Origin: Escherichia coli
Lineage (GTDB): Bacteria > Pseudomonadota > Gammaproteobacteria > Enterobacterales > Enterobacteriaceae
Assembly: GCF_003334335.1 (NCBI RefSeq)
Contig: NZ_QOWQ01000036.1
Direction: 5' to 3' (one strand)
Length of the DNA: 45,604 nt
Shown: positions 15,991-44,315 of the stretch, piece after piece
How positions within the stretch are numbered: position 1 is the first letter of the stretch
Layout: each line of letters begins with the position of its first letter
Notes under the pieces: generated by a model
The model's input: the letters and a program-made list of their open reading frames with translations, nothing else
Databases searched by the model: none
What the model was told of the DNA's origin: nothing
Made by a program: the position numbers and the translations under genes

Positions 15991-16016
15991 ACAAAAAAGG
16001 CCATCATACGATGGCC
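15991..16016 (-). terminator. Intrinsic terminator ending the sucABCD transcript (shared palindrome downstream of mngR)
   Basis: Stem ggccatc/gatggcc (15999-16016), loop atac, followed on the minus strand by a U6 tract (plus-strand aaaaaa 15993-15998). Confidence 0.8.
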
Positions 16017-16091
16017 AACCATGTCGAAACCGACAGCCCTTCGCCATTCCTGTAGAGGGAAGCGGCGAGGGCTATTTCTTATTACAGATAT
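15993..16091 (-). ncRNA. sdhX: sucD 3'UTR-derived sRNA (SdhX/RybD-type)
   Basis: ~100-nt 3'UTR between sucD stop and a strong terminator; a 3'UTR sRNA is known at this position in enterobacteria. Exact 5' end not determinable from sequence. Confidence 0.55.
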
Positions 16092-16961
16092 TTATTTCAG
16101 AACAGTTTTCAGTGCTTCACCGATATCCGCCAGGCTGCGAACGGTTTTCACGCCTGCGGCTTCCAGAGCAGCGAATTTCTCATCCGCAGTCCCTTTCCCA
16201 CCGGCAATGATGGCACCCGCGTGGCCCATACGTTTGCCTTTCGGCGCAGTCACACCAGCGATGTAACCCACAACTGGCTTGGTAACGTGCTCTTTGATGT
16301 ACGCAGCTGCTTCTTCTTCAGCGCTACCGCCGATCTCACCGATCATCACGATCGCTTCGGTCTGCGGATCTTTTTCGAACATTTCGAGAATGTCGATAAA
16401 GTTAGAGCCCGGGATCGGGTCACCGCCGATACCGACACAGGTCGACTGACCGAAACCGTAATCCGTGGTCTGTTTAACCGCTTCATAGGTCAGTGTACCG
16501 GAACGGGAAACGATACCCACTTTACCCGGTTTGTGAATGTGACCAGGCTGGATACCGATTTTGCATTCACCCGGAGTGATAACGCCTGGGCAGTTCGGGC
16601 CGATCATACGAACGCCTGCTTCATCCAGCTTCACTTTCACGGTCAGCATATCCAGCGTCGGGATGCCTTCAGTGATGGTGATAATCAGTTTGATGCCTGC
16701 GTCGATGGCTTCCAGAATGGAGTCTTTGCAGAACGGTGCTGGTACGTAGATAACAGAAGCGGTAGCGCCAGTGGCAGCAACGGCTTCACGCACGGTGTTG
16801 AACACCGGCAGGCCGAGGTGGGTGGTGCCGCCTTTACCTGGGGTTACGCCGCCAACCATTTTAGTGCCGTATGCAATGGCCTGTTCTGAGTGGAAAGTCC
16901 CCTGGCTACCGGTAAAGCCCTGGCAGATAACCTTGGTGTTTTTATCGATTAAAATGGACAT
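16092..16961 (-). CDS. sucD: Succinyl-CoA synthetase alpha subunit
   Basis: 289 aa; CoA-binding and catalytic-His region recognisable. Confidence 0.96.
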
Positions 16962-18127
16962 TATTTCCCCTCCACTGCGGCAACAACCTGCTGAGCTGCA
17001 TCCGTCAGACCTTTTGCTGCAATAATATTCAGGCCGCTGTCAGCCAGTTTCTTCGCGCCGAGTTCGGCGTTGTTACCTTCCAGACGTACCACGACCGGTA
17101 CGTTAACACCCACTTCTGCTACCGCGCCGATGATACCGTCAGCGATCAGGTCGCAACGAACGATACCGCCGAAGATGTTAACCAGAACGGCTTTCACTTT
17201 GTCGTCAGAGAGGATGATTTTGAACGCTTCGGTTACACGTTCTTTGGTTGCGCCGCCGCCAACGTCAAGGAAGTTAGCCGGTTCGCCGCCGTGCAGTTTA
17301 ACGATGTCCATCGTACCCATCGCCAGACCTGCGCCGTTAACCATACAACCGATGTTACCGTCCAGCGCAACGTAGTTCAGTTCCCACTGTGCAGCCTGTG
17401 CTTCACGCGGATCTTCCTGCGACTGGTCACGCATTTCGCGCAGATCAGGCTGGCGGAACAGTGCGTTGCCGTCAGCGCCCAGTTTGCCGTCGAGGCAAAT
17501 CAGATCGCCCTGTTTGGTGATGACCAGCGGGTTGATTTCGATCAACGCCAGGTCGCGCTCCAGGAAAATGGTCGCCAGGCCCATGAAGATTTTGGTGAAC
17601 TGCTGAACCAGTTTACCTTCCAGACCCAGTTTGAACGCCAGCTCGCGTCCCTGATACGGCATCGGGCCAGTCAGCGGATCAAGCGCAACTTTATGGATCA
17701 GGTGCGGAGTTTCTTCCGCCACTTTTTCGATTTCCACGCCGCCTTCGGTGGAGGCCATAAAGACCACACGACGGGAACTACGGTCAACAACGGCACCGAG
17801 ATACAGCTCTTTAGCGATATCGGTCGCTGCTTCAACCAGAATCTGGTTAACCGGTTGGCCATTGGCATCTGTTTGATACGTTACCAGACGCTTGCCCAGC
17901 CAGTTTTCTGCAAAAGCACGGATGTCTTCTTTGCTGTTTACAACTTTCACACCGCCCGCTTTACCGCGGCCACCAGCGTGAACCTGACATTTCACTACCC
18001 ACGGACCGGCACCGATTTTTGAAGCGGCTTCTTCTGCTTCGCGCGGAGTAGTACAGGCATAACCCACCGGTGCTGGTAAGCCATAGCGGGCAAAAAGTTG
18101 TTTTGCCTGATATTCATGTAAGTTCAT
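16961..18127 (-). CDS. sucC: Succinyl-CoA synthetase beta subunit
   Basis: 388 aa, ATP-grasp family; stop overlaps sucD start by 1 nt. Confidence 0.96.
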
Positions 18128-18210
18128 GTGTTCTGTCCATCCTTCAGTAATCGTTATCTTTTAAACCGTAGACCGAATATTTCGTATCGCTTCCGGGCAT
18201 TGTCGGTCAC

Positions 18211-18380
18211 CCGTAGGCCTGATAAGACACGTTAACCGTCACATCAGGCATCGCTTGTCGGATGCGGCGCTAGCGCCTTATCCGACCTACATTGGTGGTC
18301 CCGTAGGCCTGATAAGACGCGTCAGCGTCGCATCAGGCTTCAATTGCCGGAGAAGGCGATAATGCCTTATCCGGTCTACA
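18211..18380. repeat. REP/BIME cluster in the sucB-sucC intergenic region
   Basis: Several inverted copies of the gcctgatgcgacgc / gccttatccggcctac REP motif. Confidence 0.8.
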
Positions 18381-18401
18381 GTGCAGGTGAAACTTAAACT
18401 A

Positions 18402-19619
18402 CTACACGTCCAGCAGCAGACGCGTCGGATCTTCCAGCAACTCTTTGATCGTTACCAGGAAGCCCACGGATTCGCGACCATCGATCAGACGGTGATCGTA
18501 GGACAGCGCCAGGTACATCATCGGCAGGATCTCAACCTGACCATTCACCGCCATCGGACGATCTTTGATAGCGTGCATACCCAGAATTGCGCTCTGCGGC
18601 GGGTTGATGATCGGCGTAGACATCAGGGAACCGAACACACCACCGTTGGTGATGGTGAAGTTACCACCGGTCAGATCTTCAACGGTCAGCTTGCCGTCAC
18701 GGCCTTTGACTGCCAGCTCTTTGATTTTCTTCTCGATGTCTGCCATGCCGAGGGTATCGACATCACGCAGAACCGGCGTCACCAGGCCGCGCGGCGTAGA
18801 AACCGCCATGCTGACGTCGAAATAGTTGTGGTAAACCACGTCATCGCCGTCGATAGAAGCGTTCACTTCCGGGTAACGTTTCAGGGCTTCAACCACCGCT
18901 TTCACGTAGAAGGACATAAAGCCCAGACGGATGCCGTGGCGTTTTTCAAACGCTTCACCGTACTGCTTACGCAGATCCATAATCGGCTTCATGTTGACTT
19001 CGTTGAACGTGGTCAGCATGGCGGTGGAGTTTTTCGCTTCCAGCAGACGCTCTGCCACACGCTTACGCAGGCGAGTCATCGGGACACGTTTTTCACTACG
19101 TGCAGCCAGAGCCGGTTGCGCCGCCGGAGCAGCCGCTGCCGGAGCAGACTCTTTCGCCGGGGCTTTCGCCAGATGTTTTTCCACATCTTCACGAGTCAGA
19201 CGACCACCCACACCGGTGCCTTTAATGGCGCTGGCGTCGAGATTGTGTTCAGCCAGCAGGCGACGGATCGCCGGGCTTAACGCATCGTTGTTTTGCTCTT
19301 CCAGAGACGCCTGCTGGCGTTGCGCCGGAGTGGACGCTTTCTCTTCAGATTTGGCGCTGGTTTCTTTACCGGCGCTGTTGCCTTCACGCAGGCGACCAAG
19401 GATCTGACGAGACGTTACCGTTGTACCTTCATCTTCCAGAACCGCATCCAGAATGCCGTCTGCTGATGCCGGTACTTCCAGTACCACTTTGTCAGTTTCG
19501 ATTTCTACCAGCACTTCATCACGTACGACTGCGTCGCCGGGTTTTTTATGCCAGGTTGCGACGGTGGCATCGGCTACGGATTCAGGCAGGTCAGGGACCA
19601 GAATATCTACGCTACTCAT
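18402..19619 (-). CDS. sucB: Dihydrolipoyllysine succinyltransferase (2-oxoglutarate dehydrogenase E2)
   Basis: 405 aa; lipoyl domain, Ala/Pro-rich linker, catalytic domain. Confidence 0.96.
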
Positions 19620-19633
19620 TGTGTATCCTTTAT

Positions 19634-22435
19634 TTATTCGACGTTCAGCGCGTCATTAACCAGATCTTGTTGCTGTTTCTGGTGAACGGACATATACCCT
19701 ACCGCCGGAGAGGCGGAGGCCGGGCGGCCTGCATAACGCAGAGAAGCCCCAAACGGAATCACTTCACGGAAATGATGCTGGCTGCAGTACCATGCGCCCT
19801 GGTTGAGCGGCTCTTCCTGGCACCAGACAAAATCCTTGACGTGAGCAAACTGCTGCAACACTTCCTGCATCGCTTTATGCGGGAACGGGTAGAGTTGCTC
19901 GATACGCACAATGGCGACATCGTGTTGATTGTTCTTACGACGCTGTTCCAGCAGGTCGTAATAAACCTTACCAGAACACATCACTACGCGCTTCACGCCC
20001 TTCGGATCAAGCTCGTCGATTTCACCGATGGCTGGCAGGAAGGTGCCGTTCGCCAGTTCTTCGAGGCTGGAAACCGCCAGCGGATGACGCAGCAGGGATT
20101 TCGGCGACATCACGACCAGCGGACGACGCATCCCGCGCAGCGCCTGACGACGCAGCATGTGGTAAACCTGTGCCGGGGTAGACGGTACGCAAACCTGCAT
20201 GTTTTGCTCAGCACAAAGTTGCAGATAACGTTCCAGACGCGCGGAGGAGTGCTCCGGCCCCTGCCCTTCGTAACCGTGCGGCAGCAACATCACCAGACCA
20301 CACATCCGGCCCCATTTCTGTTCGCCAGAGGAGATGAACTGGTCGATAACCACCTGCGCACCGTTGGCGAAGTCACCGAACTGCGCTTCCCAGATGGTCA
20401 GAGTGCGTGGTTCTGCGGTGGCATAACCATATTCAAACGCCAGCACTGCTTCTTCAGACAGTACGGAGTCCCAGACACGGAACGCGCCCTGCCCGTTATG
20501 GATATGTTGCAGCGGCGTGTAAGTGGAACCGTTAGACTGGTTGTGGATCACCGCGTGGCGGTGGAAGAAGGTACCGCGACCGGAGTCTTCACCCGACAGG
20601 CGAACCGGAATGCCTTCATCAACCAGCGTGGCGTAAGCGAGGTTTTCCGCACCGCCCCAGTCGAACAGTTTCTCACCGGCAGCCATCGCCTGGCGATCGC
20701 CATAAATCTTGGCAACGCGAGACTGCATTTCAACTGCTTCCGGCACCGTGCTGATGCGTTTCGCCAGCTCCTGCAGGCGCTTCATCTCAACTTTGTTCGG
20801 GTACTCTTCGTCCCATTCGTGGTTGAGGTACGGCGACCAGGTGAAAGAGTGCATGTTCATCGGACGCCACTCTGCCACTACGCAATCGCCAGCATCCAGC
20901 GCATCGCGGTACAGGTTAACCATCTCGGTGGCATCTTCCAGCGTCGCCACTTTTTCCTGCTCCAGCTTGTCAGCGTAGATTTTGCGCGGTGTCGGATGTT
21001 TTTTGATTTTCTGATACATCAGCGGCTGGGTTGCGCTCGGCTCGTCGGCTTCGTTGTGGCCGTGACGGCGGTAGCACACCAGGTCGATGAAGACATCACG
21101 TTTAAAGGTGTTACGGAAATCGAGCGCCAGACGGGTCACAAAGGCAACGGCTTCCGGATCGTCCGCGTTAACGTGGAAAATCGGGGCCTGAACCATCTTA
21201 CCGATATCAGTACAGTACGGCGTAGAACGGGCATCCAGCGGATTAGAGGTGGTGAAACCAACCTGGTTGTTGATAACGATACGTACCGTACCGCCAACTT
21301 CATAACCACGCGCTTTCGACATGTTCAGGGTTTCCTGAACCACGCCCTGCCCGGTCACTGCGGCGTCACCGTGGATGGTGATTGGCAGCACTTTGTTGCT
21401 GCTCGGCTCATCAAGTCTGTCCAGACGGGCACGAACAGAACCGATAACTACCGGGCTTACAATCTCAAGGTGAGACGGGTTAAACGCCAGCGCCAGGTGC
21501 ACCAGGCCGCCATCGGTCTGGAAGTCAGACGAGAAGCCCATGTGGTATTTCACGTCACCCGTGCCGAGGTGTTCTTTATGTTTACCGGCGAACTCGTCGA
21601 ACAAGTCTTGCGGTTTTTTACCCAGCACGTTCACCAGCACGTTCAGACGACCACGGTGCGCCATCCCGAGAACCACTTCGCGGGTGCCGCTGTTGCCAGC
21701 GTGGCGGATCATCTCTTTAAGCATCGGGATTAACGCGTCACCGCCTTCCAGCGAGAAGCGTTTTGCGCCAGGGAATTTTGCGCCGAGGTAACGTTCAAGA
21801 CCTTCAGCGGCGGTCAGTTCGCTTAAGAAGCGTTTTTTCTCTTCGCTATTGAAAGTCGCGCGACCAGACTCGATACGCTGTTGGATCCAGCGTTTTTCTT
21901 CGGTGCTGGTAATGTGCATATACTCGGCACCAATCGGGCCGCAGTAGGTTTGCTTGAGGGCTTCCAGCAGCTCGCCGAGTTTCATGGTTTCTTTGCCGCT
22001 GGCAAATGAACCGACGTTGAAGGTCTCCTGGAAGTCTGCTTCGGTCAGATCGTGGAAAGACGGATCCAGATCGGCCACTTTATCTTGCTGCCACAGTCCC
22101 AGCGGATCGAGATTCGCATGCTGGTGACCACGGAAGCGGTATGCGTTAATGAGCTGCAGGACTTTAACCTGCTTCACATTGGTGTCAGGGTCGGAGATCG
22201 TTGAAGAGTAACGTGAAGCGTCTTTCGCCAGGCGGCGGAAATATTCACGCGTTTGAGAGTGGAATTGATCCGGTTTGACTCCCGTACCAGGTAACTGCTG
22301 GAACGTCGAACGCCAGTTAGCGTCAACCGAGTCAGGATCGGTTAAGAAGTCTTCATAGAGCTGTTCTATCCAGCTCTGGTTTGCGCCAGAGAGGTAAGAA
22401 GAGTCCAACCAGGCTTTCAAAGCGCTGTTCTGCAT
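19634..22435 (-). CDS. sucA: 2-oxoglutarate dehydrogenase E1 component
   Basis: 933-aa ThDP-dependent E1. Confidence 0.96.
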
Positions 22436-22613
22436 CGTGATCCCTTAAGCATCTTTTTTATGCTTACTTCGCCGTGGATACTACCACGCACAGTGATGTG
22501 CGTGCCGGGGTTCACTTGCGAGCTCTTGTCTACGTAGTGGCTCGCGAAGGAACCTTTAAAAACTGTCTTAGTGTCAGGGGCAGTTTTTAAAGATTTCCTG
22601 CATTTCTTTGTTA

Positions 22614-22733
22614 CGCCTGATGCGCTGCGCTTATCAGGCCTACGGGTAATGACTTGTAGGCCGGATAAGGCGTTCACGCCGCATCCGGCACTGGTTGCCT
22701 GATGCGACGCTTGCGCGTCTTATCAGGCCTACG
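22614..22733. repeat. REP cluster between sdhB and sucA
   Basis: Three REP-consensus copies in alternating orientation ending 2 nt before the sdhB stop. Confidence 0.8.
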
Positions 22734-22735
22734 GT

Positions 22736-23452
22736 TTACGCATTACGTTGCAACAACATCGACTTGATATGGCCGATGGCGCGCGTCGGGTTCAGCCCCT
22801 TCGGACATACACTGACGCAGTTCATGATGCTGTGACAGCGGAATACGCTGAATGCATCACTCAAACCGTCGAGGCGGCTGTCAGTCTCGGTATCACGGCT
22901 ATCAATCAGGAAACGATATGCCGCTAACAAGCCTGCCGGGCCGATAAACTTATCGGGATTCCACCAGAAAGACGGACAAGAGGTTGAACAACATGCGCAG
23001 AGAATACATTCATACAGCCCGTCGAGTTTTTCGCGCTGCTCTGGCATCTGTAAATGCTCGCGAGCTGGCGGATTTTGTCCATTATTCAACAGGTAAGGCT
23101 TAATTTTCTCATATTGCGCATAGAATTGTCCCATGTCTACCACCAAATCGCGGATCACCGGTAAACCTGGCAGCGGGCGAATCACAATCTTCTTGCCCGG
23201 CTGGTTGAGTGCCGAAATCGGGGTAATACAGGCCAGACCATTCTTGCCGTTCATGTTCAGACCGTCGGAACCGCACACACCTTCACGGCAGGAGCGGCGG
23301 AACGACAGGCTGGGATCTTTCTCTTTTAGCTGGATAAGCGCATCCAGCAGCATCATGTCGCGACCTTCATCCGCTTCCAGGGTGTAATCCTGCATACGCG
23401 GAGCATCATCAACATCCGGGTTATAGCGATAAATTGAAAACTCGAGTCTCAT
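22736..23452 (-). CDS. sdhB: Succinate dehydrogenase iron-sulfur subunit
   Basis: 238 aa with Cys clusters for 2Fe-2S/4Fe-4S/3Fe-4S centres. Confidence 0.96.
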   Translation of the reverse strand: MRLEFSIYRYNPDVDDAPRMQDYTLEADEGRDMMLLDALIQLKEKDPSLSFRRSCREGVCGSDGLNMNGKNGLACITPISALNQPGKKIVIRPLPGLPVIRDLVVDMGQFYAQYEKIKPYLLNNGQNPPAREHLQMPEQREKLDGLYECILCACCSTSCPSFWWNPDKFIGPAGLLAAYRFLIDSRDTETDSRLDGLSDAFSVFRCHSIMNCVSVCPKGLNPTRAIGHIKSMLLQRNA

Positions 23453-23467
23453 TTTCCTGTCTCCGCA

Positions 23468-25234
23468 TTAGTAAGTACGAATCTTCGGCGGGAATGCCGG
23501 GCGCAGTTTCGGTTCCATGTTGACGCTTCGGCGCGTCATGGATTCCGACTCTGGCAGATACAGGGAGTGGCACAGCCAGTTTTCATCATCACGATCCGGG
23601 AAGTCGAAGCGGCTATGCGCGCCACGGCTTTCGGTACGGAAGTTGGCAGAAACAGCCGTTGCATACGCCGTTTCCATCAGGTTATCCAGTTCCAGGCACT
23701 CAACGCGCTGGGTGTTGAACTCGCTGGAAGTGTCATCCAGACGGGCATTTTTCAGACGCTCGCGGATCACTTTCAACTGCTCAAGCCCTTTCGCCATCGC
23801 ATCACCTTCACGGAAGACCGAGAAGTTATGCTGCATACATTCTTGCAGCGCTTTACGGATCGCCACCGGATCTTCACCGTTACGATTATTGTTCCAGCGG
23901 TTCAGGCGATCCAGAGACGCTTCAACATCAGACTCGCTGGCATCGCGCAGTGCGCCCTGCTCGGCGATAGACTCTTGCAGATGCAGACCTGCCGCGCGAC
24001 CAAAGACCACCAGGTCCAGCAGCGAGTTGCCGCCCAGACGGTTAGCGCCGTGTACCGATACACAAGCGATTTCACCAACGGCAAACAGTCCCGGAACAAC
24101 CACATCTTCGCCTTTCTCATTCACAGTCAGCGCCTGACCGGTAACTTTGGTCGGAATACCGCCCATCATGTAGTGACAGGTTGGGATAACCGGAATCGGC
24201 TCTTTCACCGGATCGACGTGAGCGAAGGTACGGGAAAGCTCCAGGATACCCGGCAGACGGGATTCGAGAACTTCTTTACCCAGGTGATCGAGTTTCAGTT
24301 TCGCGTGTGGCCCCCACGGACCATCACAGCCGCGACCTTCACGGATTTCGATCATGATGGAACGCGCAACCACGTCACGGCCCGCCAGGTCTTTGGCGTT
24401 CGGCGCATAACGCTCCATAAAACGTTCGCCATGTTTGTTCAGCAGATAACCGCCTTCACCACGGCAACCTTCGGTGACCAGTACGCCCGCACCGGCAATG
24501 CCGGTCGGGTGGAACTGCCACATTTCCATATCCTGCACCGGTACGCCGGCACGGATAGCCATGCCGACACCGTCGCCGGTGTTAATGTGGGCGTTGGTGG
24601 TGGACTGATAAATACGCCCTGCTCCGCCAGTCGCCAGCACGGTAGCGCGGGCTTTGAAATAAACCACTTCACCGGTTTCGATGCACAGTGCGGTACAACC
24701 CACCACCGCGCCATCCTGGTTTTTCACCAGATCCAGCGCATACCACTCGGAGAAAATGGTGGTGTGGTTTTTCAGGTTCTGCTGATAAAGCGTGTGCAAC
24801 AGTGCGTGACCGGTACGGTCAGCTGCTGCCGCAGTGCGTGCCGCCTGCTCGCCGCCGAAGTTTTTCGACTGACCGCCAAACGGACGTTGATAGATACGAC
24901 CATCATCGAGACGCGAGAACGGCAGGCCCATGTGTTCGAGTTCCAGAATCGCTTCCGGCCCGGTTTTACACATATATTCAATCGCGTCCTGGTCACCGAT
25001 ATAGTCCGACCCTTTCACGGTGTCGTACATATGCCATTCCCAGTTATCTTCATGGGTATTACCCAGCGCAACGGTAATGCCGCCTTGCGCAGAAACGGTA
25101 TGGGAACGGGTCGGGAAGACTTTAGAGAGCAGCGCACAGGTCTGGCCGCTCTGGGAAATTTGCAGCGCCGCGCGCATACCTGCGCCACCGGCACCAATCA
25201 CAACTGCATCAAATTCTCTGACTGGCAATTTCAT
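23468..25234 (-). CDS. sdhA: Succinate dehydrogenase flavoprotein subunit
   Basis: ORF begins [23 protein letters not shown]; start placed at MKLPV (588 aa); FAD-binding GxGxxG. Confidence 0.95.
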
Positions 25235-25581
25235 CACACACCCCACACCACAACGAATCCATAAATCACGTAAACCACCAGTGCAACGACAATCACCAGT
25301 TGCAGCATCAGGCGCAAAGCCAGCGGTTTAACGTAGTCGGTCAACACCTGCCACATGCCGATCCAGGCATGGATCAAGATAGAAAACAGCGCCAGCAGGG
25401 TGAACACTTTGGTGAACGCAGAGGCGAAGAAACCGATCCAGACTTCATATGTCAGCTCGCCACTGGTAGCGAAAAAACCGACCATATAAATGATGTAGAG
25501 CGTCAGGACGATAGCGGTAGCGCGAACGAGGATGAAATCATGTACGCCATTGCGTCCTAATGCGGAGGCGTTGCTTACCAT
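25234..25581 (-). CDS. sdhD: Succinate dehydrogenase membrane anchor subunit
   Basis: 115-aa hydrophobic protein, overlaps sdhA start. Confidence 0.95.
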
Positions 25582-25964
25582 ACGAGGACTCCTGCGAGAA
25601 GTGAAAGCACGACAGTAATAACAAAGGAGATTTTGGCGGAGCGTTTACCCGCTTCGAATGTTTCTTCCAGATAGCCAAAATCCATCATCATGTGGCGAAT
25701 ACCTACGACGACGTGATACGCCAGAGCGGTAAGGATGCCCCACATGATAAATTTGACGAAGAAGCTGCCCATAATCGCGGAAGCTTGCTCGAAACCTTCA
25801 GGGGAAGAGAGGCTGGTACCCAGAAGCCACAGCAGGATGCCCACTGCAACAAAGGTGATCACACCGGAAACGCGATGGAGAATGGACGCTATCGCCGTGA
25901 TGGGGAACCGGATGGTCTGTAGGTCCAGATTAACAGGTCTTTGTTTTTTCACATTTCTTATCAT
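25575..25964 (-). CDS. sdhC: Succinate dehydrogenase cytochrome b556 subunit
   Basis: ORF track gives 134 aa; start placed at [11 protein letters not shown] (129 aa). Confidence 0.93.
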
Positions 25965-26672
25965 GAATAACGCCCACATGCTGTTCTTATTATTCCCTGG
26001 GGACTACGGGCACAGAGGTTAACTTTCTGTTACCTGGAGACGTCGGGATTTCCTTCCTCCGGTCTGCTTGCGGGTCAGACAGCGTCCTTTCTATAACTGC
26101 GCGTCATGCAAAACACTGCTTCCAGATGCGAAAACGACACGTTACAACGCTGGGTGGCTCGGGATTGCAGGGTGTTCCGGAGACCTGGCGGCAGTATAGG
26201 CTGTTCACAAAATCATTACAATTAACCTACATATAGTTTGTCGGGTTTTATCCTGAACAGTGATCCAGGTCACGATAACAACATTTATTTAATTTTTAAT
26301 CATCTAATTTGACAATCATTCAACAAAGTTGTTACAAACATTACCAGGAAAAGCATATAATGCGTAAAAGTTATGAAGTCGGTATTTCACCTAAGATTAA
26401 CTTATGTAACAGTGTGGAAGTATTGACCAATTCATTCGGGACAGTTATTAGTGGTAGACAAGTTTAATAATTCGGATTGCTAAGTACTTGATTCGCCATT
26501 TATTCGTCATCAATGGATCCTTTACCTGCAAGCGCCCAGAGCTCTGTACCCAGGTTTTCCCCTCTTTCACAGAGCGGCGAGCCAAATAAAAAACGGGTAA
26601 AGCCAGGTTGATGTGCGAAGGCAAATTTAAGTTCCGGCAGTCTTACGCAATAAGGCGCTAAGGAGACCTTAA
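25965..26672. promoter_or_regulatory. Divergent gltA / sdhCDAB promoter and leader region
   Basis: 708-bp non-coding region between divergently oriented gltA and sdhC; this region is known to carry catabolite/ArcA-regulated promoters and the sRNA-targeted sdhC leader. Individual sites not mapped. Confidence 0.6.
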
Positions 26673-27956
26673 ATGGCTGATACAAAAGCAAAACTCACCC
26701 TCAACGGGGATACAGCTGTTGAACTGGATGTGCTGAAAGGCACGCTGGGTCAAGATGTTATTGATATCCGTACTCTCGGTTCAAAAGGTGTGTTCACCTT
26801 TGACCCAGGCTTCACTTCAACCGCATCCTGCGAATCTAAAATTACTTTTATTGATGGTGATGAAGGTATTTTGCTGCACCGCGGTTTCCCGATCGATCAG
26901 CTGGCGACCGATTCTAACTACCTGGAAGTTTGTTACATCCTGCTGAATGGTGAAAAACCGACTCAGGAACAGTATGACGAATTTAAAACTACGGTGACCC
27001 GTCATACCATGATCCACGAGCAGATTACCCGTCTGTTCCATGCTTTCCGTCGCGACTCGCATCCAATGGCAGTCATGTGTGGTATTACCGGCGCGCTGGC
27101 GGCGTTCTATCACGACTCGCTGGATGTTAACAATCCTCGTCACCGTGAAATTGCCGCGTTCCGCCTGCTGTCGAAAATGCCGACCATGGCCGCGATGTGT
27201 TACAAGTATTCCATTGGTCAGCCATTTGTTTACCCGCGCAACGATCTCTCCTACGCCGGTAACTTCCTGAATATGATGTTCTCCACGCCGTGCGAACCGT
27301 ATGAAGTTAATCCGATTCTGGAACGTGCTATGGACCGTATTCTGATCCTGCACGCTGACCATGAACAGAACGCCTCTACCTCCACCGTGCGTACCGCTGG
27401 CTCTTCGGGTGCGAACCCGTTTGCCTGTATCGCAGCAGGTATTGCTTCACTGTGGGGACCTGCGCACGGCGGTGCTAACGAAGCGGCGCTGAAAATGCTG
27501 GAAGAAATCAGCTCCGTTAAACACATTCCGGAATTTGTTCGTCGTGCGAAAGACAAAAATGATTCTTTCCGCCTGATGGGCTTCGGTCACCGCGTGTACA
27601 AAAATTACGACCCGCGCGCCACCGTAATGCGTGAAACCTGCCATGAAGTGCTGAAAGAGCTGGGCACGAAGGATGACCTGCTGGAAGTGGCTATGGAGCT
27701 GGAAAACATCGCGCTGAACGACCCGTACTTTATCGAGAAGAAACTGTACCCGAACGTCGATTTCTACTCTGGTATCATCCTGAAAGCGATGGGTATTCCG
27801 TCTTCCATGTTCACCGTCATTTTCGCAATGGCACGTACCGTTGGCTGGATCGCCCACTGGAGCGAAATGCACAGTGACGGTATGAAGATTGCCCGTCCGC
27901 GTCAGCTGTATACAGGATATGAAAAACGCGACTTTAAAAGCGATATCAAGCGTTAA
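26673..27956 (+). CDS. gltA: Citrate synthase (type II)
   Basis: 427 aa with the conserved citrate synthase active-site region (GFGHRVYK). Confidence 0.97.
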
Positions 27957-27986
27957 TGGTTGATTGCTAAGTTGTAAATATTTTAA

Positions 27987-28016
27987 CCCGCCGTTCATAT
28001 GGCGGGTTGATTTTTA
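27987..28016 (+). terminator. Intrinsic terminator of gltA
   Basis: cccgcc-gttcatat-ggcggg stem-loop followed by ttgatttttat. Confidence 0.85.
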
Positions 28017-38401: not shown

Positions 38402-40066
<1,665 letters not shown>

Positions 40067-42287: not shown

Positions 42288-43049
42288 CTATTCAAACGTG
42301 AAATCAATAAGTTCATCAGGGACATCGCAAACAATATGAAGACGGATTTCTTCTCTGCCGTGACTCTTTTCACTCATTGCGTAACTGTCATGCTCTGGAT
42401 TATTTAATTCTTTCAGCGGAAATTTTTCCTCAAAGGCTTTATTTAGCCGCCCCTGGTTTCCTTTTACCGCGAATAAATAATCACCTCCCTGTTTTTGTAT
42501 CTTCTCTGCAATATCTTTCTGGCAACCCATCGCATCAGTTGTGATGATTTTTCCTTTAATATCCAGCATGTTAAGAAGTTCAGGGATAGCTGTGATCTCA
42601 TTGGATTTCTTATCCGTCTTGATCTGCCCGATGACCAGACTGTGCATTGTTGAGAACGCACTAATGACATGAATCGCTCCCCTGCGGCGACTCTTGTCAT
42701 AAGAGTGCCGGAGCGTTTTTCCATCAATTGCAATGACGTCTTTATCATTTGATGAATGGCAATCACGCATCCAGTTAATAAAGCACTCGTGAAATTTTGC
42801 AGGACTGATACAGGATACAACTCTGGCAATAGTATCGTGAACAGGAATACCATTTTCAAAATCACCATATTGCTTCAAGAAATCGAGATGTGTTTCCCCG
42901 AAATCCTCTATATCTTCCCAACTTTCTGCACCAGAAATAACGGCAAAAATAGTCAATAGTAGGATGCCTGACAATTTATGCTCTACTTTCCAGGCTTATC
43001 TGTAATCGGGAATAATAGAAATATGTTCCATCAATTTTTTAAGTTCCAT
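42288..43049 (-). pseudogene. ybfD: H-repeat-associated transposase remnant, copy 1 (ybfD-like), in-frame TAA at codon 18 and 3'-truncated
   Basis: [17 protein letters not shown]-stop(42996-42998)[10 protein letters not shown]... then 228 codons; ends ...[12 protein letters not shown] where full-length ORF-H continues W-K-G-L. Confidence 0.75.
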
Positions 43050-43174
43050 TTGTTCACCTTATTTATGTAAGGAGTATTTGATCATGTATAAGCTATGAAA
43101 AACAGCTTTAGGTAATAAGGAATATCTCAATTTTTAAACATAAAATGCGAATTATTTAGTACAAAAAAGTAGCG

Positions 43175-43429
43175 TTACGTGATCTTTCCCTGGGATACAA
43201 CTCTGGCAATGGTATCGTGAACAGGAATACCATTTTCAAAATCACCATATTGCTTCAAAAAATCGAGATGTGTTTCCCCGAAATCCTCTATATCTTCCCA
43301 ACCTTCTGCACCAGAAATAACGGCACAAATAGTCAACAGTAGAATATCTGACAATTTATGCACCACTTTCCAGGCTTGTCTGTAATCGGGTGTAATAGAA
43401 ATATGTTCCATCAATTTTTTAAGTTCCAT
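43175..43429 (-). pseudogene. H-repeat transposase N-terminal fragment, copy 2 (84 codons)
   Basis: [22 protein letters not shown]...IARVVS then out-of-family QGKIT-stop created by the repeat junction. Confidence 0.8.
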
Positions 43430-43554
43430 TTGTTCACCTTATTTATGTAAGGAGTATTTGATCATGTATAAGCTATGAAAAACAGCTTTAGGTAATAAGG
43501 AATATCTCAATTTTTAAACATAAAATGCGAATTATTTAGTACAAAAAAGTAGCG

Positions 43555-43809
43555 TTACGTGATCTTTCCCTGGGATACAACTCTGGCAATGGTATCGTGA
43601 ACAGGAATACCATTTTCAAAATCACCATATTGCTTCAAAAAATCGAGATGTGTTTCCCCAAAATCCTCTATATCTTCCCAACCTTCTGCACCAGAAATAA
43701 CGGCACAAATAGTCAACAGTAGAATATCCGATAATTTATGTTCCACTTTCCAGGTTTGTCTGTAATCGGGGATAATAGAAATATGTTCCATCAATTTTTT
43801 AAGTTCCAT
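43555..43809 (-). pseudogene. H-repeat transposase N-terminal fragment, copy 3 (84 codons)
   Basis: Near-identical to copy 2 (I13, T19, E23 variants); same junction-derived C-terminus. Confidence 0.8.
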
Positions 43810-43951
43810 TTTGTTCTCCTTAATTAGGTAAGGAGTATTTGATCATGTATAAGCAATAAAAAACAGCTTCAGGTAATAAGGAATATCTCAATTTTTAAAC
43901 ATAAAATGCGAATTATTTAGTGCAAAAAGTGAACTTTTGATGATCTTTCCC

Positions 43952-44315
43952 TGGCCGTTGACTCGATTGCCGTAGCTCGAACGCAAGCACTCTTATCATT
44001 CAATGCCATATTGTTCAAAATATTAAAAACATTATCTTCGCATTTTTTGCAAATTTATATTTGCCCGAGTATAAATGCTCCGATATCTCTACGGATATAA
44101 TTTTTGTCAGTGCAGAATTCAATTGCCAATCTAACAGCGTCTTGCCCCCCTCTTAACTGTAATACTCTGGCAGATGAAATCCTTTTCAAGGAATTGCGAT
44201 CATCAAGTAAGCGAAATAATTCATCATCATTTAGTTTCTTACATTTATTATATAAACCATACTCTTTACTTGCCTTTCTTTTCTGGTATGTATTTGACAT
44301 TGCAGGAACCTCCAT
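43952..44315 (-). pseudogene. yibA-like HEAT-repeat (PBS-lyase type) gene remnant
   Basis: MSNTYQKRKASKEYGLYN...AFILGQI then TAA (44055-44057); homology continues in frame (ICKKCEDNVFNILNNMALNDKSACVRATAIESTA) to ~43953 where the H-rpt terminus begins. Confidence 0.7.

Follow-up and report, generated by a model that had tools for sequence, protein, structure and literature searches.

The closest described systems to the hairpin reported here are the RNase III stems of the rpsO-pnp leader, of rRNA and of the aceE leader, the hairpins that stabilise mRNA at its 5′ end (the ompA type) or, as REP sequences, at its 3′ end, and the dispersed repeats REP/BIME and ERIC (IRU). Structured sucA leaders are known as well: the Rfam motifs sucA and sucA-II describe them in Burkholderiales and Pseudomonas, and they have no assigned ligand. 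We have analyzed the spacer between sdhB and sucA in a stretch of 45,604 nucleotides from an Escherichia coli contig (NZ_QOWQ01000036.1), referred to below as the window. In this spacer, a perfect 12-bp inverted repeat, the core of a hairpin that we call P1, lies beside an array of REP copies.

P1 shares with the RNase III stems an intercistronic location, a variable domain enclosed by the stem and an rnc-processed spacer; in sdh-suc, as in those systems, the protein-level effect of rnc is confined to the downstream cistron. It differs from them in being only 18-19 bp long with a bulge, and the known processing signal lies in the neighbouring REP, with none mapped in P1. By analogy with the stabilisers, P1 could protect the processed sucABCD mRNA, and the REPs, or a small hairpin termed P0, the 3′ end of sdhCDAB. 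The three REP copies are typical of the REP/BIME family, with GCCKGATGCG...CTTATCMGGCCTAC motifs in alternating orientation, whereas the 12-bp inverted repeat is rich in A/T, occurs once per genome and is kept from genus to genus. The inserts that occupy the P1 loop in 33 species share the ERIC core and belong with a dispersed family, but the E. coli loop carries no ERIC and the arms are not part of it. The likeness to the Rfam sucA and sucA-II motifs consists in a conserved structured RNA upstream of sucA and does not extend to membership by sequence or structure; an Rfam cmscan of positions 16000-28000, with E values up to 1, returned naRNA4 only and neither sucA, sucA-II nor any other RNA family.

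The spacer and its REP array

Both sdhB (23452-22736) and sucA (22435-19634, with the ATG at 22435-22433) are encoded on the minus strand of the window. Minus-strand positions 22400-22780 are identical (100%) to E. coli K-12 MG1655 NC_000913.3 758361-758741, and the 300-nt sdhB-sucA spacer itself, at 22436-22735, is identical (100%) to NC_000913.3 758406-758705; a K-12 coordinate x therefore converts to window position 22735-(x-758406). An earlier note on this DNA placed the 300-bp spacer within one long sdh-suc transcription unit, with which the published readthrough from sdhCDAB into sucABCD agrees.

The locus is much studied in K-12, where the spacer is already known for its REPs, its processing by RNase III and its control by a small RNA. 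In published experiments, processing by RNase III, a secondary promoter and an internal terminator have all been placed in it (Cunningham & Guest 1998, cited in PMC9731577 and in PMC6393394; Conway 2014; Gordon 2017). Three RNase III sites are located in the spacer upstream of the pairing site of the small RNA GlnZ (PMC9731577), and an rnc-dependent gap in RNA-seq coverage has its peak at NC_000913.3 758515 (Gordon 2017, PMC5371410; reads were mapped to NC_000913.3 and only one site was kept per 400 bp). The peak corresponds to window position 22626, within the sucA-proximal REP; the base of the P1 stem lies 23 nt, and the 12-bp core 34 nt, further downstream. In the rnc14 mutant, SucA is down and SucB is unchanged (PMC9731577), and repression of SucA by GlnZ requires RNase III. 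The suc promoter reported in the spacer is weak and internal; sucAB is repressed 3-4 fold by IHF, and the sucA promoter is bound by Nac. The locus goes unmentioned in Stead 2011. The retrieved literature text places no 5′ or 3′ end and no cleavage in P1 and assigns no role to it, its sole RNase III coordinate being the one in the REP, and a full-text literature search for the arm sequences returned no bacterial paper.

The proposal that structures in the spacer uncouple sdh from suc can be split in two. For the spacer as a whole it agrees with the reported RNase III processing and partial termination, and since SucA, and not SucB, falls in the rnc mutant, the spacer helps to uncouple the two gene groups. 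For the inverted repeat, the parts of the proposal that invoke a terminator or an operator are not supported, as described below.

The three REP copies reported beside the inverted repeat are indeed there, as hairpins on the minus strand that together span 22612-22732. The copy nearest sdhB (22697-22732), which is first in the mRNA, has its own arms at 22697-22710 and 22715-22728 and also pairs with 22656-22679, so that a long REP1-REP2 hairpin is predicted; the middle copy (22656-22689) has the inverted orientation, and the copy nearest sucA (22612-22643) holds the RNase III-dependent coverage peak. All three are ~35-nt imperfect GC-rich palindromes with the conserved motif, extragenic, dispersed and variable in copy number between strains, as expected of REP/BIME elements. 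The Rfam model of REP pairs, naRNA4 (RF02564), matches the middle and sdhB-proximal copies at 22659-22729 with 88.4 bits on the plus strand (gathering score 59.5) and 53.3 bits on the minus strand. The location coincides with that of the published REP67 cluster, which lies at 757623-757752 in the older K-12 numbering, or window 22612-22741 (Romero 2014). A 421-nt query containing the array has a median of at least 39 places per E. coli genome. Two further REP pairs (naRNA4 scores of 59.5 and 56.4 bits) are present in the same operon, at 18216-18376 in the sucB-sucC spacer.

The number of REPs differs greatly between strains. Aligned E. coli spacer variants of 200, 254, 300 (K-12), 349 and 550 nt contain zero, two, three, four and about eight copies, respectively; of 5426 complete E. 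coli genomes, 2286 have the K-12-like form and 1761 the REP-less junction of the 200-nt form. In all five variants, the 54 nt that include P1 are invariant, and P1, searched with a 59-nt query, is present once per genome at 95% identity or more in 5425 of the 5426 genomes. The REP array is a dispensable, strain-variable accessory, and the REPs and the inverted repeat, which the earlier note treated as one unit, are separable. Because the spacer lacks REPs in 1761 of 5426 genomes, any conserved function is to be sought in P0 or P1 and not in the REPs.

P0 is a small GC hairpin, GCCGGGGAAAUCCCCCGGC, of the 200-nt E. coli form, where REPs are missing. It (CCGGGG...CCCCGG) is located just past the sdhB stop codon, at 378-396 of the E. 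coli LR-45 locus (L003), and equivalents are present in L013, L072, L077 and L080; the E. coli REP array occupies its place. In Pantoea, P0 is followed by UUUU, and the scan does not call a terminator there. Since scans of the K-12, REP-less E. coli and Pantoea spacers for sigma-70-like promoters and terminators found nothing, P0 cannot be called a canonical terminator.

Structure and conservation of hairpin P1

The arms of the inverted repeat, ctttaaaaactg (22554-22565) and cagtttttaaag (22581-22592), are exact reverse complements 15 nt apart, just as had been claimed; read along the minus-strand mRNA, 22592-22581 comes first as the 5′ arm and 22565-22554 follows as the 3′ arm. With a repeat finder, the pair grows to 15 nt (22551-22595; 93% complementarity). 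The window contains three perfect 12-bp inverted repeats with loops of 3-30 nt, compared with 0.12 expected per window simulated with a first-order Markov model, so the repeat is beyond chance. The helix is longer than 12 bp: in the sense RNA, GGAA(A)UCUUUAAAAACUG pairs with CAGUUUUUAAAGGUUCC to form P1 (22549-22598, minus strand), which has 18-19 pairs, one bulge, one U.G and an apical loop at 22566-22580, and folds with -18.6 kcal/mol (z = -3.7). An A/U-rich stem with GGUUCCUUCG behind it departs from the GC-rich stem and directly adjoining U-tract that define an intrinsic terminator, and a terminator scan of both strands between 22000 and 23200 found none. Neither does the 12-bp repeat belong to the dispersed, multi-copy REP family, being A/T-rich, devoid of the REP motif and present at one place per genome in the 5426 genomes.

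We extended the comparison to other species, with one genome per species, and obtained 80 loci from Enterobacteriaceae and Erwiniaceae, 78 of them with the whole spacer, which was never shorter than ~200 nt. Both P1 arms are recognisable in 74 of these 78 Enterobacterales spacers. The end of the 3′ arm is located 99-122 nt upstream of the sucA ATG, except at three loci with an insertion further downstream. The distance from arm to arm ranges from 5 to 165 nt across 75 loci, and at each of the 75 the arms pair in the minimum-free-energy fold; the apical part enclosed by them consists of a short loop, of a pair of small hairpins or of one long hairpin with imperfect pairing. At the four loci without a sequence match, which belong to Pantoea and Mixta, a hairpin is present at the equivalent position with its base kept (GGAAGCCUU / AAGGUUCC); the inner stem differs, yet is complementary (GGAAGCCUUGCUAAGCG...CGCUUAGCAAGGUUCC in Pantoea). 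Erwinia has a third version of the inner stem, also complementary.

Arms that are A/T-rich and strongly conserved in sequence might act as DNA, as half-sites of an operator or as promoter or nucleoid-protein sites (IHF, Nac, Fis) for the weak suc promoter; such a promoter, repressed by IHF and bound by Nac, is reported in the spacer, and the repeat could overlap it. However, half-sites 5 to 165 nt apart are incompatible with a dimeric operator or with -35 and -10 elements spanning the arms, and the inner arms of Pantoea and Mixta have been rewritten with complementarity kept, which selection on DNA sequence would not bring about. Nor was a sigma-70-like promoter seen in the scanned K-12, REP-less and Pantoea spacers. 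The IHF consensus WATCAANNNNTTR, searched with at most one mismatch, has no match within 22436-22735, the only nearby one being inside the 3′ end of sdhB (22757-22769), and the Nac motif ATAAGnAAAAnTTAT is not evident by eye in P1. We therefore consider a DNA-level element improbable, and the palindromic protein-binding operator suggested earlier is unlikely given the arm spacing at the 75 loci. Retention of pairing at arm distances of 5-165 nt argues for the closing stem of an RNA domain.

The match inside sdhB, TATCAAGTCGATG (22757-22769, minus strand), departs from WATCAANNNNTTR at one position and precedes the sdhB stop codon by 21 nt; it is a candidate site for the repression that IHF is reported to exert on the suc promoter.

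At 33 loci, the P1 loop contains an insert of one family, which has an ERIC-like core and folds as a long, imperfect hairpin. The inserts are 132-141 nt long in 33 species, and short forms of 70-82 nt exist as well. The core has 3-7 mismatches in 22 to the ERIC primer regions. About 60 base pairs are predicted in the imperfect composite hairpin of ERIC-bearing species. The presence of such a hairpin in the loop at 33 loci implies that long, largely double-stranded RNA is tolerated there; this tolerance, seen in many genera, would fit a position at which cutting of double-stranded RNA does no harm or serves a purpose.

Three Citrobacter loci (L007, L026 and L051) carry a second insertion, ~125-130 nt in size, whose ERIC-like core has the reverse orientation; it is placed downstream of P1, past the GlnZ site and ahead of the Shine-Dalgarno sequence of sucA. 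It is probably the 127-142-nt extra spacer described for Salmonella Typhimurium.

The adjoining REPs, and the ERIC-like repeat placed exactly between the arms in many genera, could be taken to mean that the inverted repeat is itself a functionless relic of a mobile element, for example the terminal repeats of a REP/ERIC-related miniature element, or a neutral palindrome. The arms, however, are single-copy (median of 1 per genome, versus 7 places per E. coli genome for the dispersed ERIC-like core and at least 39 for REP-containing DNA), they are present with or without the insert, and their position is kept across two families with compensatory changes. A mobile-element origin of the arms was rejected on copy number, and we regard a relic as very improbable.

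Insertions made an alignment of 79 upstream sequences unusable, and it was replaced by arm searches and by an insertion-free alignment of 24 sequences. In the latter, 7 of the 18 P1 pairs change on both sides, most of these changes coming from one clade, Erwiniaceae, and representing few independent events. P1 cells are paired in 95.6% of cases, versus 25-43% when the partners are slid, and none of 500 shuffles reached the observed values. Compensatory changes thus keep the pairing, and the position relative to the gene is kept, as is characteristic of a conserved RNA helix: the P1 helix exists, is conserved and covaries. It is the inverted repeat, rather than the REP array, that is the conserved element of the spacer: an RNA stem that covaries and whose loop can expand. 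At the base of this stem (GGAA.YCUU / AAGGUUCC), conservation extends to the sequence and is not limited to pairing, so that something sequence-specific may be recognised there.

The strand on which P1 acts can be considered from the same data. Substitutions do not favour the sense strand, and the antisense hairpin is more stable than the sense one (-23.8 kcal/mol, z = -4.85), both of which count against a sense-strand P1. The antisense (window plus) strand would be the functional one if the hairpin terminated, processed or stabilised a transcript that leaves sucA towards the REP cluster. Besides the more stable fold, this would agree with the U-rich AUUUCCUGCAUUUCUUUGUU that follows the hairpin on that strand, with the higher naRNA4 score on the plus strand and with the single-side substitutions, which are mostly G.U-compatible on the antisense strand. 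In addition, the supplement of Romero 2014 lists an abundant 129-nt RNA from the REP67 cluster, antisense with respect to sdhB and sucA, with its 5′ end at window 22612, 14 nt past P1. The 23 distinct arm pairs contain 30 C.A-type mismatches, equivalent to G.U on the antisense strand, versus 18 G.U wobbles; this asymmetry is not significant, the sequences are not independent, and strand assignment on this basis was rejected. Against an antisense function stand the lack of a canonical terminator (the stem has an A/U-rich base, the U-tract is not continuous and no terminator came up in the scan), the U-rich flank, which is not conserved in other genera, the abundant transcription of the sense operon and the downstream hairpins P2-P4, which make sense on the sense strand only. 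We give it a low probability, about that of a DNA-level element.

A duplex of sense and antisense REP RNA could be an RNase III substrate.

P1 in the sucA leader and its possible role

Downstream of P1, the leader contains further elements, all on the minus strand. P2 (22518-22545) is a GC-rich hairpin, GCGAGC...GCUCGC, that covaries (for example, GCGGAC/GUCCGC). It is followed by an anti-Shine-Dalgarno segment, GUGAACCC (22508-22515), predicted to pair with the Shine-Dalgarno region in the minimum-free-energy fold of K-12; in the RNAalifold consensus, GAACC of this segment pairs alternatively with GGUUC at the base of the P1 3′ arm. The pairs of both the anti-Shine-Dalgarno and the GGUUC/GAACC helices either never vary or change on one side only. 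Next come the P3 hairpin (22485-22504; CACGCACA / UGUGCGUG), four of whose six pairs change on both sides, and the pairing site of GlnZ (22467-22480), in which UCCACGGC at 22471-22478 is complementary to the GlnZ seed UUGCCGUGGAAA; the seed and mutational proof of the pairing are published (PMC9731577). P4 (22441-22466; UAAGCAU...AUGCUUA), after which comes the Shine-Dalgarno sequence AAGGGA, is unvarying in the 24-sequence alignment, and a few stem variants (L052, L064 and L083) were seen by eye in the 79-sequence alignment.

The segment GUGAACCC (22508-22515) and the Shine-Dalgarno region AAGGGAUCAC (22436-22446) are both invariant in Enterobacteriaceae. The predicted pairing between them would be in keeping with the low expression that Walling et al. 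reported for a fusion to the sucA leader in isolation.

The explanation that we tentatively prefer, at somewhat less than even odds, is that P1 is a conserved hairpin of the sense RNA which acts post-transcriptionally by closing off a variable apical domain; its likeliest role is that of a determinant of nuclease processing or stability. P1 would be the first structural element of the sucA leader in the sdhCDAB-sucABCD readthrough transcript. It would act either as an RNase III-sensitive stem or as the 5′-proximal protective hairpin left once RNase III cuts the neighbouring REP hairpins, and in either role the output of SucA would be set partly independently of sdh. The REP array would add double-stranded RNA for RNase III, 3′-end formation and attenuation; in strains devoid of REPs, as in other genera, its place is taken by P0. 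Cleavage of P1 or a protective action of it, and an effect of P1 on sucA translation, are plausible but fall a little short of probable. RNase III substrates have about two helical turns of double-stranded RNA, and the A/U-rich, bulged E. coli stem of 18-19 bp is towards the short end for the enzyme, which counts against P1 as its substrate. Further points against the explanation are that the only available RNase III coordinate falls in a REP, that the stem base is conserved in sequence and that the both-side changes come mostly from Erwiniaceae.

A more specific scheme, based on modelled folds, is that P1 forms part of an RNase III-gated translational switch of sucA. With P1 intact, the GAACC-containing segment at 22508-22515 would pair with the Shine-Dalgarno region; with the 5′ arm processed away, GGUUC at the base of the 3′ arm would take GAACC, and the ribosome site would be freed. 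RNAalifold and the K-12 fold reveal three mutually exclusive pairings among invariant segments, namely P1 base GGAA.YC/GGUUCC, GGUUC/GAACC and GUGAACCC/Shine-Dalgarno, and across 24 genera all three segments either stay invariant or vary compatibly. When the 5′ arm alone was deleted in silico, the probability that the Shine-Dalgarno region is unpaired rose in K-12 (from 0.40 to 0.78) and in Salmonella arizonae (from 0.45 to 0.90); the effect was small in six other species (at most from 0.40 to 0.69). We consider such a switch unlikely, though if true it would account for the loss of SucA, but not SucB, in rnc mutants.

The sdh-suc spacer sets the amount of 2-oxoglutarate dehydrogenase relative to succinate dehydrogenase and is the point where nitrogen status (through GlnZ and Nac) and RNase III act on the TCA cycle. 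Descriptions of it are dominated by the REP array, yet the array is dispensable in a third of E. coli genomes, and the element conserved across Enterobacterales is a single-copy hairpin beside it. Results on REP-based processing obtained in K-12 may thus not generalise, and P1 is the right target for mechanistic work. The gain is incremental, as both the kind of element and the layer of regulation are already known.

Other repeats in the window

A perfect 12-bp inverted repeat, TATTTATGCAAT-N10-ATTGCATAAATA, is located at 38462-38495, in the spacer between a 247-aa ORF on the minus strand and a divergent 493-aa ORF on the plus strand, and looks operator-like. Another, ACACGACCAGAA-N10-TTCTGGTCGTGT at 710-743, lies just 3′ of a minus-strand ORF that ends at 752 and is probably a terminator-type hairpin. 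Finally, a tandem repeat of 3.0 copies of 380 bp (95% matching) occupies 42813-43954. Its units encode 84-aa N-terminal fragments that resemble the start of the adjacent 228-aa ORF and look like pieces of an H-repeat / ISAs1-family transposase.
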